A DNA stretch of 64,000 nucleotides, from positions 510-64,509 of the forward strand of contig DESZ01000030.1 in the NCBI GenBank assembly GCA_002361485.1, written 5' to 3'. The stretch's first letter is position 1. The number at the start of each line of letters is the position of its first letter. Shown one piece after another: positions 2,777 to 39,184 of the stretch. Made by a program: the position numbers and the translations under genes. The notes beneath the pieces are model-generated. The model saw only the letters and a list, made by a program, of their open reading frames with translations, did no database searches and was not told the origin of the DNA. This stretch comes from Cyanobacteria bacterium UBA3301 (lineage in GTDB: Bacteria; Cyanobacteriota; Vampirovibrionia; Gastranaerophilales; Gastranaerophilaceae).

Positions 2777-3451
2777 ATGAGCGGTAACGAAAATAACAAG
2801 TTAAACAATAATATATTTTCACAAGGTTTCGGATTTAAGTCCGTTAACCCGTTTGATGCTGCATCAGCCTCGTTTACACAAAATTTTAATCAAATTCCTA
2901 AAGCTCAACGGAGATTAAACGGATATGATTCAACAATATTAAACAAAGCGAACTTTGATCAAGTTCAAGAGCCTGATTTGAGTATGGATTTCAGAATAAA
3001 AGAAAAAGAAACCATATTAAAAGAGCTTGATGAAAAAATAAAATTATCCGATAACTACGGCAACCAAGGAGAATCTTTAAGCCTAAAAGCTAAACGCCAA
3101 AGAATTTATCAGGAATTAAACACACTAAAAAAACAACAAATATATGGCTCACAGGGGTTATCTGAAGATAAATTTTCTCACAATACTTTAAAATACAAAA
3201 TGCCTGTGTTGTATAAGATAAACAACTTTATATCGCGCCGTATATTAGCAAAAGTTTCAAAGAAAATAAATTCTGTTGTCGCACTAAGCGATTCATTAGA
3301 ACAATTATCAGACATCAGCAAAAGCGTTGATGAATTGGTTGGGATGAATATTCCTTATGGAGAAAAAGTTCAAAACTACGAAAAATTAACCCAATATTTA
3401 AGTCAGGCAAATGCCATTCATACAAAGATATCTAAAACGTTGAGGAAATAA
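2777..3451 (+). CDS. hypothetical protein, coiled-coil rich
   Basis: 224-aa ORF filling the gap between flanking genes. It has heptad-like charged segments and no recognisable motif. Confidence 0.55.
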   Translation: MSGNENNKLNNNIFSQGFGFKSVNPFDAASASFTQNFNQIPKAQRRLNGYDSTILNKANFDQVQEPDLSMDFRIKEKETILKELDEKIKLSDNYGNQGESLSLKAKRQRIYQELNTLKKQQIYGSQGLSEDKFSHNTLKYKMPVLYKINNFISRRILAKVSKKINSVVALSDSLEQLSDISKSVDELVGMNIPYGEKVQNYEKLTQYLSQANAIHTKISKTLRK

Positions 3452-3561
3452 AAAAGATGCGTGAAAGCTTGAACGCGTAGAGGCAAAGTCTAAAAACAAA
3501 ACGGACTATGCATCTGTGCATCTAATTACTATTTACAGATTGAACACTATTTGAACACGAT

Positions 3562-3601
3562 AGAAAATAAAAATGCTTAATCCCATACGGCTCAAGCATT
3601 T
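3562..3601 (-). terminator. possible intrinsic terminator downstream of tRNA-Pro
   Basis: On the minus strand, AAATGCTT and AAGCATTT form an 8-bp stem with a 15-nt loop, followed by TTATTTTC. The stem is weak and AT-rich. Confidence 0.4.
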
Positions 3602-3607
3602 ATAAAA

Positions 3608-3681
3608 TCGGGATGACAGGATTTGAACCTGCGGCCCCTTCGTCCCGAACGAAGTGCGCTACCAAGCTGCGCTACATCCCG
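3608..3681 (-). tRNA. tRNA-Pro (anticodon CGG)
   Basis: The reverse complement folds as a full cloverleaf: CGGGATG TA GCGC AGCTTGGTA GCGC A CTTCG TTCGGGA CGAAG GGGCC GCAGG TTCAAAT CCTGT CATCCCG A. It is 74 nt with G37 and no encoded CCA. Confidence 0.92.
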
Positions 3682-3891
3682 ATATTTAGTTGTCAAGTTG
3701 AAAACTTTCGTTTTCAACGGTGCGCTACCACCTCTCGAAAAAACAATTCACCGGATTGTTTTTTCTCGGCAGAGTGCTACATCCCGATATTTAGTTGTCA
3801 AGTTGAAAACTTTCGTTTTCAAGGGTGCGCTACCATCTCTCGGAAAAACAATTCACCGGATTGTTTTTTCTCGGCAGAGTGCTACATCCCG
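3671..3891 (-). repeat. 105-bp tandem repeat (2 full units plus an 11-nt third start) beginning with the 5' end of tRNA-Pro
   Basis: The plus-strand string gctacatcccg occurs at 3671, 3776 and 3881, an exact 105-bp period. The two full units differ at only 3 positions. Confidence 0.95.
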
Positions 3892-3963
3892 GGGGTAAAT
3901 ATTGCTACCAATGGTTGCAATACTTACTCATATCTTTGTTTTAATGTACAAATTACATAGTTT

Positions 3964-3972
3964 ATTATACCA
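3964..3972 (-). promoter_or_regulatory. candidate extended -10 promoter element (TGGTATAAT) for the repeat plus tRNA-Pro transcript
   Basis: The minus strand reads TGGTATAAT, matching TGnTATAAT, directly after the fadD-like stop and about 70 nt upstream of the outermost pseudo-5' end. Confidence 0.4.
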
Positions 3973-3982
3973 CCAACAAAAT

Positions 3983-5665
3983 TTATTTTCCACATTCTGC
4001 CAAAAGAGCTTTAACTTCTTTGCGTTTTACTTTGCTGGTTGCGGTTCTCGGCAAACCGGTTTGTCTTACCACAATGTTAATCGGACGTTTATATGACGCT
4101 AATTGTAATGACAAACTTTTTACTTCTTTATGAACCGCGGTTTCAACTTCATCAAAGTTTGAATAAGAATTGATGACTTCTTCTGTCGGAACAATCACGG
4201 CAACAATTTCTTCACAACCGTCTTTTTCTCCGCCTGCTTTCGGCATACCGACAACACAGACTTCCGCAAATTTATCACTTTGCTGTAATACTGTTTCAAC
4301 TTCTTCAGGGAATACTTTCTTACCGCCTGATAAAACTATCATATTCTTAATTCTACCTGTTATATATAATAATCCATTGCGGATTTCTGCGATATCACCT
4401 GTATGAAACCAACCGTCAGCTTCTAAAACTTCGTCAGTCAAATCTTGTCTGCCATAATAACCTTTCATAACTGATGGCCCTTTAACTAACAATTCTCCTG
4501 TTTCGGAATCGATTTTTGCTTCATAAGAATCTAAAATAGGTCCAACAGAACGCATATTATCCTGATTTGGATTATTACACATTGAAACAACCGGACTTGT
4601 TTCTGATAATCCGTAACCCTGGAATATTCTTACACCGATTCTTTTAAACCATGCGCCCACAATAGGATCTAACGGCGCACCACCCGAAATGTACCCGAAG
4701 AAATGTTTTCCGTATAATCGGTGAATTGTTCTAAACATTAATCTTCTGATATAAAAAGGCATAAATGCCGCCAAATGATATTTTATATTAAATATCATTT
4801 TGTACATTGCTGATTTTTTACTTATTTCCGATTCAAAATACGATTTTAAAAGCTTCAAAAACGCAGGAACCGTAACCATAAAACGAATTTTCTTTTCCTG
4901 CATAATGTCTAAAATATCTTTCGGTTTTAAACTGCTTGTATAATATACGGAATATCCGTGAGTCAACATTGTGAAAAACCCAACGGTCATTTCAAATAAA
5001 TGATTCATAGGCAATATCGACAACAAACGCATTTCTTTATTTTTAGGCATCATGCTTTTTAATACTTTGCGCATACCATACATTTGAGCAAGCATATTTT
5101 TGTATGTAGTTTGAACACCTTTTGGTGCACCTGTTGTACCTGAAGTATAAATAATCAATGCCGTATCATGCAAAGGTCTTCTGCGCCATTTTGCACTATA
5201 ATTCGCAGGGATTGAATACAAACTCGGAGTATTTTCACATTCGTATTCAGATGCTTCCATCAAAATTATATGTTTTATAGACGGAATTTTGGACTGTAAT
5301 TCCTGTGCTTTTTTATAATTTTTGCTTGATGTCATCAATACTGTCGGTTCACAACTTGATAATATTGATGTCAATTCATATATTGTTAATTTATTATCCA
5401 AAGGAACAATAGTTAACCCTGCCAACACAGAGCCAAATACGCAAACACCATATTCAGGTAAAGATTCTGAGAGTATCGCCAATTTCTCGCCTTTTGGGAT
5501 TTGTAAATCATTTATCAGATATGCACCCAGGCGTTCTGCTAACAAGCTCAAACCTTTATATGTAAATTCATTCCAGCCCCATAAAGTTTTCATGCCTAAT
5601 GCAACTTTTTTTTGGTTTGTCGCAGTTGTTTTTTCTAATAATGAAAATATGCTCTCGTATTTCAT
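3983..5665 (-). CDS. fadD: AMP-dependent acyl-CoA synthetase (long-chain fatty acid-CoA ligase-like)
   Basis: AMP-binding signature IIYTSGTTGAPKGV, plus GYGLSETSP, WFHTGD and a C-terminal PRTATSKVKR motif. 560 aa. Confidence 0.85.
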   Translation of the reverse strand: MKYESIFSLLEKTTATNQKKVALGMKTLWGWNEFTYKGLSLLAERLGAYLINDLQIPKGEKLAILSESLPEYGVCVFGSVLAGLTIVPLDNKLTIYELTSILSSCEPTVLMTSSKNYKKAQELQSKIPSIKHIILMEASEYECENTPSLYSIPANYSAKWRRRPLHDTALIIYTSGTTGAPKGVQTTYKNMLAQMYGMRKVLKSMMPKNKEMRLLSILPMNHLFEMTVGFFTMLTHGYSVYYTSSLKPKDILDIMQEKKIRFMVTVPAFLKLLKSYFESEISKKSAMYKMIFNIKYHLAAFMPFYIRRLMFRTIHRLYGKHFFGYISGGAPLDPIVGAWFKRIGVRIFQGYGLSETSPVVSMCNNPNQDNMRSVGPILDSYEAKIDSETGELLVKGPSVMKGYYGRQDLTDEVLEADGWFHTGDIAEIRNGLLYITGRIKNMIVLSGGKKVFPEEVETVLQQSDKFAEVCVVGMPKAGGEKDGCEEIVAVIVPTEEVINSYSNFDEVETAVHKEVKSLSLQLASYKRPINIVVRQTGLPRTATSKVKRKEVKALLAECGK

Positions 5666-15780: not shown

Positions 15781-16182
15781 TTATTCTGCTTTTTGAGATT
15801 TATCTTTTTTGGTAAATAGACTTTTTATTCCTTTAAATAAACCGGAGAATACATTACCGATGAATTTTCCGACAGGTTTTAGAACCCCATTCCAAATGAA
15901 TTTTCCGACAGGTTTTAAAACACCGTTCCATATAAATTTTCCGACAGGCTTTAGAACTCCGTTCCATACAGCTGTTGCCGCTGTTCCGATTGCATGCCTA
16001 ATTTTTGGAGAACCGATAATTATTCCTGCGGCTATTCCTGTCAAAGCTCCATAGGTAGCATCTTTTGACCAGATAGAACCCATTCCGTAACCGCAGCATG
16101 GCCCGCCCATCATCATAGGCGGAGGCGGACAGCAAAACCCGCCGTTTGTATATATATTTGTTTGTTTAATATATAATGACAT
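15781..16182 (-). CDS. small Cys/Met/Gly-rich protein with three tandem 12-aa repeats (WNGVLKPVGKFI)
   Basis: 133-aa ORF. The three 36-bp DNA repeats differ only at synonymous sites, so the peptide repeat is under selection. Also has a glycine-zipper hydrophobic segment (YGALTGIAAGIIIGSP). Confidence 0.7.
   Translation of the reverse strand: MSLYIKQTNIYTNGGFCCPPPPMMMGGPCCGYGMGSIWSKDATYGALTGIAAGIIIGSPKIRHAIGTAATAVWNGVLKPVGKFIWNGVLKPVGKFIWNGVLKPVGKFIGNVFSGLFKGIKSLFTKKDKSQKAE
15863..15970 (-). repeat. 3 x 36-bp in-frame tandem repeat inside CDS 15781..16182
   Basis: aattttccgacagg... recurs at 15863, 15899 and 15935. Differences are AAT/AAC, GGG/GGT/GGA, CTA/TTA and AAA/AAG, all synonymous. 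Confidence 0.95.
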
Positions 16183-38665: not shown

Positions 38666-38744
38666 TGGGCATGAAGAGACTCGAACTCCCACGCTTTCGC
38701 ACTAGTTCCTAAGACTAGCGTGTCTACCATTCCACCACATGCCC
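38666..38744 (-). tRNA. tRNA-Leu (anticodon UAG), class II with long variable arm
   Basis: The reverse complement folds as GGGCATG TG GTG GAATGGTAGA CAC G CTAGT CTTAGGA ACTAG TGCGAAAGCGT GGGAG TTCGAGT CTCTT CATGCCC A. 79 nt, no encoded CCA, T-stem has two G-U pairs. Confidence 0.88.
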
Positions 38745-39047
38745 ATATTTAATTGTCAATATTCTGGTCATTCCTGCGCCTCGCCTTAAACGCCACCGCC
38801 TCCAATTAGTCGGAATATCCATTACCGACATAATTGTCGGTCTCTCCGCTAATGCTCCGTGGCTCTGCTCGGCTTGCACCACATGCCCATATTTAATTGT
38901 CAATATTCTGGTCATTCCTGCGCCTCGCCTTAAACGCCACCGCCTCCAATTAATCGGAATATACATTACCGACATAATTGTCGGTCTCTCCGCTAACGCT
39001 CCGCGGCTCTGCTCGGCTTGCACCACATGCCCATATTTAATTGTCAA
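38733..39047 (-). repeat. 144-bp tandem repeat (2 full units plus a 27-nt third start) beginning with the 5' end of tRNA-Leu
   Basis: caccacatgcccatatttaattgtcaa occurs at 38733, 38877 and 39021, an exact 144-bp period. The two full units differ at 4 positions. Confidence 0.95.
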
Positions 39048-39184
39048 ATTGGAGCAAAACTCCATATATCTAAATTATTATAAGCCAAACAACATGTCAA
39101 GGATTAATATTTTTTTATTTTAGGCAATTTTTTTATACAAAAATACTTTATATAAATATAGGGGAAAATAGAAAGGGAAAATTC

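Follow-up and report, generated by a model that had tools for sequence, protein, structure and literature searches.

Tandem modules that restart the tRNA 5' end ahead of tRNA-Pro(CGG) in a Gastranaerophilales genome, and their apparently undescribed family

Why would an intact tRNA gene be preceded by partial copies of its own 5' end? We address this question for a locus in a 64,000-nt stretch of DNA from Cyanobacteria bacterium UBA3301 (Gastranaerophilales; contig DESZ01000030.1, positions 510 to 64,509; hereafter the window), in which a tRNA-Pro(CGG) gene follows two tandem units, or modules, of 105 nt that each open with the first 11 nt of the tRNA and close with one and the same 15-nt sequence (the 15-mer). 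The feature is real and non-random, and it belongs to an undescribed family with relatives across phyla. Our favored reading, which we hold at a probability of about 0.5, is that the units are restart cassettes without open reading frames (ORFs), that they are remnants or miniature relatives of elements that interrupt the D-arm of a tRNA gene and bring a replacement 5' end, and that they would be co-transcribed with the tRNA, removed by RNase P and resized by unequal recombination.

The array is laid out as follows, from its promoter-like site to the hairpin behind the tRNA.

3964..3992 (-): promoter-like site of sigma-70 type, TGGAAA-17-TG-TATAAT, upstream of the whole array (promoter scan)
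3892..3957 (-): leader of about 66 nt, ending in ..TTTACCCC and lacking the 15-mer
3787..3891 (-): restart module 1 (type A), 105 nt (sequence, Tandem Repeats Finder (TRF), and the covariance model R1 described below)
3881-3891 (-): CGGGATGTAGC of module 1, tRNA nt 1-11
3871-3880 (-): ACTCTGCCGA of module 1
3842-3870 (-): hairpin 1 of module 1, A/U-rich
3836-3841 (-): GAGAGA of module 1
3825-3834 (-): GGTAGCGCAC of module 1, identical to tRNA nt 18-27 (D-arm)
3803-3822 (-): hairpin 2 of module 1, 8 bp with a GAAA loop
3787-3801 (-): 15-mer of module 1, TTGACAACTAAATAT
3682..3786 (-): restart module 2 (type A'), 105 nt, differing from module 1 at 3 positions
3720-3729 (-): GGTAGCGCAC of module 2
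3682-3696 (-): 15-mer of module 2, TTGACAACTAAATAT
3608..3681 (-): tRNA-Pro(CGG), 74 nt, intact, without an encoded CCA (ARAGORN, Rfam RF00005)
3564..3600 (-): hairpin AATGCTTGA..TTAAGCATT followed by TTTTTATTTT (a U-run), weakly terminator-like (sequence, fold)

The general order of a unit is CGGGATGTAGC, ACTCTGCCGA, an A/U-rich hairpin, GAGAG(A/G), GGTAGCGCAC, a GAAA-loop hairpin and TTGACAACTAAATAT, and in each unit hairpin 1 is closed by the invariant ACUCUGCCGA/GAGAGG loop. A first-pass annotation of this DNA had described two 105-nt units restarting with the tRNA 5' end, and TRF (period 105, 2.1 copies, 97% identity, 3671-3891), ARAGORN (tRNA-Pro(cgg) at 3607-3682, minus strand) and Rfam (RF00005, tRNA, 65.7 bits at 3608-3681, minus strand) bear this out base for base. 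Its further claims agree with the sequence: the units differ at 3 of 105 positions, CGGGATGTAGC occurs three times on the minus strand (3776-3786, 3671-3681 and, as the annotation's third 11-nt copy, 3881-3891), and the 46-nt insert with its A/U-rich hairpin, the 3' side of the D-arm (GGTAGCGCAC) and the 15-mer before each restart are all present. The candidate extended -10 that it placed at 3964-3972 (TGGTATAAT) lies in the sole promoter-like site found by a scan of 3450-4050, upstream of the array, with 10 of 12 matches and an extended -10 TG; the leader behind it, put at about 70 nt, measures about 66 nt.

Two of its details hold in part. The 9-bp hairpin with a GAAA loop is found in unit 2, where one of the three differences extends it to that length, but measures 8 bp in unit 1. 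The hairpin after the tRNA appears in the fold together with its U-run but is not called by a stricter terminator scan, and it may be a weak terminator-like end of the transcription unit. Because there is one promoter-like site upstream and nothing terminator-like between the two units, co-transcription of modules and tRNA is plausible. Folding also predicts a hairpin, TATTGC..GCAATA, at the 5' end of the leader (3900-3922); a fold of the whole 398-nt precursor was swamped by artefactual pairing between the two repeats and is uninformative.

The tandem copy might in principle be the work of an assembler that inflated a single unit. These are short-read metagenome assemblies, in which exact copy number is uncertain, and several contigs break within the array; five of the seven same-species contigs terminate in or near it. 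However, three positions distinguish the units, the restart is already evident in a single module, and independent assemblies (ENA, Logan, GTDB metagenome-assembled genomes (MAGs), JGI) span arrays of one to three heterogeneous modules in differing orders. We consider an assembly artefact exceedingly improbable.

A family of modules with a conserved RNA structure

Besides the tRNA-Pro units, the first-pass annotation had noticed the same architecture, with an unrelated body, at a tRNA-Leu gene of the window, and TRF and the sequence do reveal two 144-nt units there.

38745..39047 (-): sister array before tRNA-Leu(TAG), the 15-mer and then two 144-nt C-type restart modules
38666-38744 (-): tRNA-Leu(TAG)

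A C-type module consists of tRNA nt 1-12, CAAGCCGAGCAGAG.. and the 15-mer; its plan is that of the tRNA-Pro units, and its body sequence is unrelated to theirs. Other strains carry C-C-K or C-K arrays at the tRNA-Leu(TAG) locus, and modules are mostly retained there in the relatives that we sampled. A BLAST search of the window recovered no other module copies and no antisense partners in its 64 kb.

To look beyond the window, we scanned 185,579 species genomes for copies of the 15-mer with a T-loop signature behind them. Of 78 loci recovered, approximately 30 had no tRNA and were chance-like, while approximately 45 had the 15-mer 0-12 nt before a tRNA; most came from gut and rumen MAGs of Candidatus Gastranaerophilales / Melainabacteria, and both window loci, Pro and Leu, were reproduced on two contigs of the rumen MAG hRUG901. 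A metagenome scan with the pattern ACTCTGCCGA..GAGAG..15-mer added 15 loci with one to three modules each, nearly all demonstrably before tRNAs. Modules that combine a restart of the cognate 5' end with a terminal 15-mer precede Leu(tag), Leu(caa), Leu(taa), Pro(cgg), Pro(ggg), Pro(tgg), Val(gac), Asp(gtc), Gly(tcc), Thr(cgt) and Asn(gtt) genes. The Pro-like subset, which contains the invariant loop, precedes tRNA-Leu(tag), Leu(taa), Pro(cgg), Pro(ggg) and Val(gac), with approximately 30 distinct modules at Leu, Pro and Val tRNAs of rumen and gut Gastranaerophilales-like genomes. The tRNA-derived flanks of a module always agree with the cognate tRNA downstream. Thus, the 5'-end restarts that the first-pass annotation proposed to seek at tRNA loci of related genomes were found at many of them, and the modules of this locus are one member of a family at many tRNAs in many genomes.

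A covariance model (R1) built from 27 modules made 18 matches in 632 kb, every one in a tRNA leader with restart modules; in the window it matched the two Pro units only (module 1, 71.8 bits, E=2e-12; module 2, 76.2 bits, E=2e-13). Searches against Rfam at the gathering threshold and at E<=10 returned only the tRNA; all other matches had E>=0.3 and fell far below gathering. Literature searches on Melainabacteria and kink-turns, structured RNA before tRNAs, GIY-YIG nucleases in the Candidate Phyla Radiation (CPR) and partial tRNAs found no paper describing this layout, in keeping with the earlier impression that no such element had been described, and searches by sequence with the 15-mer, its sub-strings, its RNA form and ACTCTGCCGAG matched only primers and tac/trp promoters. 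The modules are apparently a widespread, undescribed family of small structured cassettes in tRNA leaders. Two loci depart from the common size: at 5980-6130 of L058, a MAG from the Lachnospiraceae, the real tRNA-Asn comes after two units of 74 nt, in each of which a pseudo-tRNA-Asn shrunk to 59 nt is joined to the 15-mer, and at approximately 8270-8500 of L099 hairpin 1 of a K-type module is enlarged by about 170 nt of non-coding sequence.

What is conserved within the modules is a structure. Across 27 aligned modules, which supplied 27 distinct hairpin-1 inserts, ACUCUGCCGA and GAGAG are invariant save for one G-to-A change (GCCAA in L062). The sequence of hairpin 1 varies freely between modules while its pairing is kept: canonical pairs make up 89.7% of its first nine positions, compared with 61.6 +/- 2.1% when partners are shuffled (maximum 70.4% in 2000 shuffles). 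The covariation check suggested at the outset yielded compensatory double changes at 7 of 14 RNAalifold pairs, and pair 1 of hairpin 1 is seen as GC, AU, CG and GU. Hairpin 1 also contains G:U wobbles, which on the opposite strand would be A:C mismatches. Because the loop is invariant, canonical pairs are in excess, changes are compensatory and G:U wobbles occur, the structure is selected on the tRNA-sense strand. The apical loop of hairpin 1 is mostly URARU (UAAGU, UGAGU, UAAAU, UGAUA); hairpin 2 is present in most modules, with differing sequence and loops that are often of GNRA type.

In the consensus kink-turn, an asymmetric G/A-rich internal loop carries GA on both strands. The modules likewise have GA on both strands (..GCCGA-stem / stem-GAGAG), as in the tandem G.A/A.G of kink-turns, and one subfamily has a second tandem GA. 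The kink-turn register needs a 4-nt bulge (UGCC) and a 3-bp CUC/GAG helix, not the strict 3-nt bulge, and RNAalifold favors another register, CUCU/AGAG plus C:G; all of those columns are invariant, so that covariation cannot discriminate between the two. Judged by its sequence, the invariant loop is best described as kink-turn-like, not as a kink-turn proper. A specifier of T-box type in the loop of hairpin 1 was considered, as the Pro-A loop has CCG, and was rejected: identical loops occur in Leu, Pro and Val modules.

These properties fit a host-functional leader RNA, the rival that we take most seriously while still judging it less likely than not to account for the modules. According to this proposal each module mimics the bottom half of a tRNA (a D stem plus a long anticodon-like hairpin) and offers a kink-turn-like hairpin to a protein or RNA; it would either tune the maturation, stability or folding of the downstream tRNA, or be released by RNase P as a decoy or sponge of about 105 nt for a tRNA-binding enzyme or a toxin. 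Cassette-like evolution would then be secondary, and the proposal does not exclude our favored reading. In its favor are the invariant ACUCUGCCGA/GAGAG, the covarying stems and strand-specific G:U pairs, the URARU and GNRA-type loops, the retention of tRNA-Leu(TAG) modules, the sharing of hairpin sequences between loci of one genome (as expected with a common trans partner), and folds that are stabler than shuffled sequences (z=-3.3 and -3.7; module 2, minimum free energy -31 kcal/mol, z=-3.3). Against it, the 5' acceptor strand has no pairing partner inside the module, so that a module alone is no RNase P substrate, the apical loops are not tRNA-specific, and no candidate partner has emerged. 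The related description of the module as a tRNA 5'-half mimic stands as far as anatomy goes (5' copy, D-loop insertion, surrogate hairpin) and fails on the missing 3' acceptor strand and the silence of tRNA detectors: ARAGORN and Rfam RF00005 called nothing in 3682-3891 even at E<=10, and the modules retain only tRNA nt 1-11 and 18-27.

The 15-mer at tRNA 5' ends

The component of the module with the widest distribution is the 15-mer. Five exact copies of TTGACAACTAAATAT occur in the 64 kb, every one at a tRNA or a restart junction; allowing up to two mismatches there are 7, compared with 1.9 expected, and none of 100 shuffles reached 7. Elsewhere it abuts the 5' ends of tRNAs in Lachnospiraceae isolates (Coprococcus and Bariatricus, in the middle of tRNA operons), in Gemmiger (tRNA-Ser), and in Vulcanibacillus, CPR bacteria (Moraniibacteriota, Saccharibacteria) and Abditibacteriales. 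In three Lachnospiraceae genomes, two isolates and one MAG (L053, L018 and L080), the exact 15-mer makes up all or part of one spacer midway along a long tRNA operon (Glu|Thr, Asp|Val, Val|Met), with no restart module. A search of viral sequences gave four matches in all. One viral contig (IMGVR_UViG_3300037071_001654, L088 1-2900) holds a phage array of 26 tRNAs with eight TTGACAATTAAATA-like spacers between them, which begin straight after N73-C74 of one tRNA and end 3-9 nt before the next.

Promoters of sigma-70 type are located 10-60 nt before the first 15-mer, which is therefore transcribed. It generally has a helix on either side, and its 3' half (UAAAUAU) resembles what we take to be a good RNase P leader. 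Two promoter roles were rejected. The first six bases equal the -35 consensus (TTGACA), yet a scan of 3450-4050 found no -10 at 16-18 nt, a position that falls in tRNA nt 8-13 (TAGCGC/TAGCAC); and a phage-type promoter abutting +1 disagrees with the location of the promoters upstream and with the small number of viral matches. One idea prompted by the sequence is a sigma-dependent pause element, with -35-like and -10-like parts 2 nt apart.

The 15-mer also resembles the 3' part of cyanobacterial boxA plus D4 of rRNA operons (TTGAAAACTGCATA vs TTGACAACTAAATA, 11 of 14 positions), and like boxA it sits in untranslated leaders of stable RNAs, and in a phage tRNA array. Unlike boxA, it is preceded nowhere by the defining 5' half (GYUCUUU, with its critical C at position 4). 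An rrn boxA in the strict sense (a NusB/NusE site with a GYUCUUUAANA-type core) was rejected, as neither GYUC nor GAACC stands upstream of approximately 70 copies; the 15-mer may be a distant functional analogue of boxA.

Array variation, nuclease-bearing analogues and a proposed origin of the modules

Contigs with an identical acyl-CoA synthetase and flanks of approximately 98-99% DNA identity carry different arrays: A-A' in the window, A'-B-A', B by itself after another leader, and A''-B... In module B the tRNA copy spans nt 1-19, the invariant loop is kept round another hairpin, and the body is diverged. Strain L004 shares the -10 box but has another leader behind it, of 46 nt, and L048 has no module where L092 has three, with promoter, leader and flanks shared (98.1-98.4% identity in the flanks). 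Restart lengths across modules are 6, 11, 12, 19 and 37 nt. Cassettes are shared between loci: one 45-nt cassette of loop plus hairpin is found, without any change, three times in L092 (Leu array) and once more in the Pro array of L101, and in hRUG901 the Pro-B and Leu-K hairpins differ solely by one compensatory flip, G-C to C-G. A lone 202-nt module in L028 (7260-7476, minus strand) joins a C-type body to a K-type 3' half and is evidence of recombination between module families. The tRNA-Pro locus is itself variable, because a sister lineage (L124-L127) with a synthetase at least 90% identical has no tRNA-Pro locus downstream of it; in its place stand a 104-aa ORF and a gene for an HTH_3 regulator.

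This variation bears on two rivals. For a host-functional leader RNA it is unfavorable that copy number and type differ among near-identical strains, that some relatives have no module and that unrelated bodies (K, C, Asp-type, pseudo-tRNA, ORF-bearing) fill the same slot. The second rival is a neutral duplication of the tRNA leader by slipped-strand events or unequal crossover, with neither function nor special origin. The units are tandem and 97% identical, their copy number differs between strains, and many contigs break within the array, all of which speaks for it; slippage accounts for copy number, however, not for the unit, and it does not explain how architecture and invariant loop recur at different tRNAs and in different genera with compensatory changes, or why one array contains distinct module types (A'-B-A'). 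The first-pass annotation would have taken relatives without modules as a sign of neutral slippage. Relatives do drop and swap modules, yet the conservation of the invariant loop, the covarying stems and the cassettes shared between loci speak against neutrality. The comparative data have largely refuted neutral duplication, and we rate it as improbable.

A clue to where the cassettes come from is provided by the CPR. At locus L057 (Moraniibacteriota) a 353-nt module encodes an 87-aa GIY-YIG nuclease (PF01541, E=1e-15) in the order 15-mer, tRNA nt 1-10, hairpins, tRNA nt 11-16, nuclease ORF, 15-mer and tRNA, and L055 is an empty site matching it. The nuclease has 478 CPR homologues at E<=1e-10, many on contigs of about 1 kb. 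In all of six further contexts the nuclease ORF comes after tRNA nt 1-10, GC-rich hairpins, nt 11-16 and a short spacer, and is itself followed by a complete tRNA, and none of the six has the 15-mer; the topology thus accompanies a GIY-YIG gene in 7 of the 7 CPR contexts that we looked at, including L057. Their hairpins are of the form CCCGAC..GTCGGG, often with GCAA loops, and the complete tRNAs are Lys, Val, Asn, Ile and others. On contigs L106, L110, L113, L119, L120, L122 and L057 the GIY-YIG genes encode 87-99 aa. The nuclease ORF enters the tRNA 5' end in five of the six further contexts, and in four of these its stop is U8-A9-G10 (TAG); RNase P cleavage would therefore remove the stop codon from the nuclease mRNA. 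In the fifth, L120, the called ORF continues into the tRNA as far as a later TGA. The tRNA beside the GIY-YIG gene of L122 (1455-1528) has the anticodon TTA; ARAGORN labels it 'tRNA-Stop', and in this CPR genome it may read UAA.

The window and the CPR contexts agree in order: tRNA nt 1-11, hairpin 1, nt 18-27, hairpin 2 plus 15-mer and the tRNA in the former, and tRNA nt 1-10, hairpins, nt 11-16, ORF and the tRNA in the latter. Because all seven CPR contexts share this order together with a nuclease ORF, an orphan 5' fragment split by a D-arm hairpin, then cargo, then an intact tRNA is the footprint of a nuclease-associated element.

In two of the CPR loci, L057 (7086-7949, minus strand) and L111 (1860-3264, minus strand), a gene for a large serine recombinase is situated immediately behind the tRNA-Asn 3' end or overlaps it, which suggests a second, conventional integration at the GIY-YIG-bearing tRNA-Asn. 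These genes also speak for a further rival, that the modules are scars of repeated site-specific integration and excision by phage-like elements or integrative and conjugative elements (ICEs), with an attachment site that includes the tRNA 5' end. We think this very improbable, and rejected a duplication of integrase attachment sites: the duplicated part is 5', not 3', the partial copies are 94 nt apart and not kilobases, no integrase is found among the flanking genes, restart lengths vary, unlike a fixed crossover core, and a hairpin splits the partial copy itself.

The origin that we propose in our favored reading would be the mirror image of the replacement of tRNA 3' ends by integrating elements. 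A break or insertion in the D-arm region of a tRNA gene would be repaired or filled by a segment bringing its own replacement 5' end, and the 15-nt single-stranded linker would rebuild the junction of leader and tRNA, leaving an intact tRNA always downstream. The CPR layout would have kept its GIY-YIG cargo, which in the window would have been lost or be supplied in trans. A single promoter would give a joint transcript of leader, modules and tRNA, from which an RNase P cut at the last 15-mer/tRNA junction would free the tRNA, with the structured modules as by-products. Arrays would grow, shrink and reshuffle by unequal recombination between 26-nt repeats (15-mer plus tRNA nt 1-11), and hairpin cassettes would be copied from one tRNA locus to another.

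Several points weigh against this reading. A profile of 120 GIY-YIG homologues (hmmsearch) had no match in the window or at any Gastranaerophilales locus, and no nuclease, recombinase or reverse transcriptase adjoins any Gastranaerophilales module or lies in the window. The neighbors are ordinary: those of the tRNA-Pro array are an AMP-binding synthetase, a tetratricopeptide repeat (TPR) protein, GH77 and a 224-aa protein with no Pfam hit, and the next ORF past the array is convergent and has no Pfam hit either. The kink-turn-like hairpin has no demonstrable sequence homology to the CCCGAC hairpins of the CPR, and the link between Gastranaerophilales and CPR is topology plus the single bridging locus L057. 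All of the presence/absence polymorphisms can be explained by deletion between direct repeats, with no gain event proven; the invariant loop, the URARU loop and the retention at tRNA-Leu(TAG) agree at least equally well with an RNA that benefits the host; RNase P processing, like co-transcription, is deduced from sequence; and the cassette model does not explain the conservation of the 15-mer across phyla.

A broader conjecture, which we offer tentatively, holds that the modules are the ORF-less form of tRNA-gene-resident '5'-restart elements' with an active RNA, and that the 15-mer is a cross-phylum pre-tRNA leader signal. Such elements would invade the D-arm region carrying a replacement leader and 5' end, with autonomous GIY-YIG versions in the CPR and miniature, RNA-structured ones in Vampirovibrionia and some Firmicutes; their RNA might form a ribonucleoprotein that controls RNase P processing or sequesters a tRNA-directed enzyme, or it might serve as an intermediate in cassette copying.

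Mobile DNA classically lands in tRNA genes and, to our knowledge, always enters them via their 3' halves. If our favored reading is true, 5'-restart cassettes would be a new answer to the problem of entering an essential RNA gene while sparing the host, in a family that carries a nuclease in the CPR and, in Melainabacteria of gut and rumen, is structured and has no gene. The family raises the questions of what ligand the kink-turn-like hairpin has, how RNase P handles structured leaders of 100-450 nt, why the stop codon of the CPR nuclease lies inside the tRNA, and what role the 15-nt TTGACAAYTAAATAT signal plays across phyla and in phage. In practical terms, the arrays break short-read assemblies and yield spurious ORF calls, and their variability at the strain level could serve as a typing marker. 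ORFs of 115 aa (3613-3960, plus strand) and 113 aa (38724-39065, minus strand) traverse the two arrays of the window, and gene callers annotate comparable ones, with no Pfam hit, on related contigs; they are probably spurious. TRF also reports a 36-nt repeat in three tandem copies (88% identity) at 15860-15966 of the window.

Comparison with known systems

Four known kinds of element were tried as models for the array and rejected. Type III toxin-antitoxin systems have ToxI-like repeats of about 36 nt before toxN, while the present units, at 105 nt, lead into a tRNA and then a terminator-like hairpin. A clustered regularly interspaced short palindromic repeat (CRISPR) array has unique spacers between identical repeats, whereas here the 79-nt 'spacers' share 97% identity and have homologues across genomes. 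A primer-binding site would agree with the complementarity of the restart to the tRNA 3' end, but the restart lacks a TGG or CCA complement. For a miniature element of IS200/IS605 type or a TnpB guide RNA, the 'left end' would have to differ with each tRNA, and the two hairpins are unrelated.

The GIY-YIG endonuclease SegB of phages T4/T6 cuts inside phage tRNA genes, and its cutting leads, by way of recombination, to a tandem amplification of segments, which is unstable unless selected for (PMC13096335). The likeness lies in a nuclease gene among tRNA genes, the CPR homologues of the L057 nuclease being placed exactly at tRNA 5' ends. SegB differs in that it amplifies whole tRNA genes together with segB in phage genomes, whereas the repeat described here is a 105-nt partial tRNA copy plus hairpins, in a bacterial chromosome and with no ORF; and the CPR proteins, seen here as predicted sequences, consist of an 87-aa catalytic domain only.

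Leader RNAs with kink-turns (T-box stem I and the SAM-I and lysine riboswitches) share with the modules a location in a 5' leader and a hairpin with an asymmetric, G/A-rich internal loop at its base. The modules differ from them in having no Rfam match and no specifier or aptamer, their loop takes the kink-turn register with a 4-nt bulge in place of the strict 3-nt one, and the gene downstream is a tRNA, not an mRNA. Eukaryotic tRNA-derived short interspersed elements (SINEs) exist in many copies and, like the modules, are composites in which a tRNA-related head is joined to an unrelated body and a conserved 3' tail. SINEs, however, are dispersed retroposons with internal Pol III promoters, whereas modules occur only directly 5' of the cognate tRNA and bear its sequence.

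The phages, ICEs and genomic islands that target tRNA genes offer a further parallel, in that an essential tRNA gene is interrupted and restored by a copy borne on the element, with a partial copy left as a direct repeat. Those elements replace the 3' part of the tRNA, span 9-120 kb, encode an integrase and use a fixed crossover core, whereas the modules replace the 5' part, are about 100 nt long and tandem, and leave an orphan copy broken by a hairpin. Relative to other mobile DNA that targets and restores tRNA genes, the modules therefore differ in being 5'-directed, miniature, tandem and RNA-structured.

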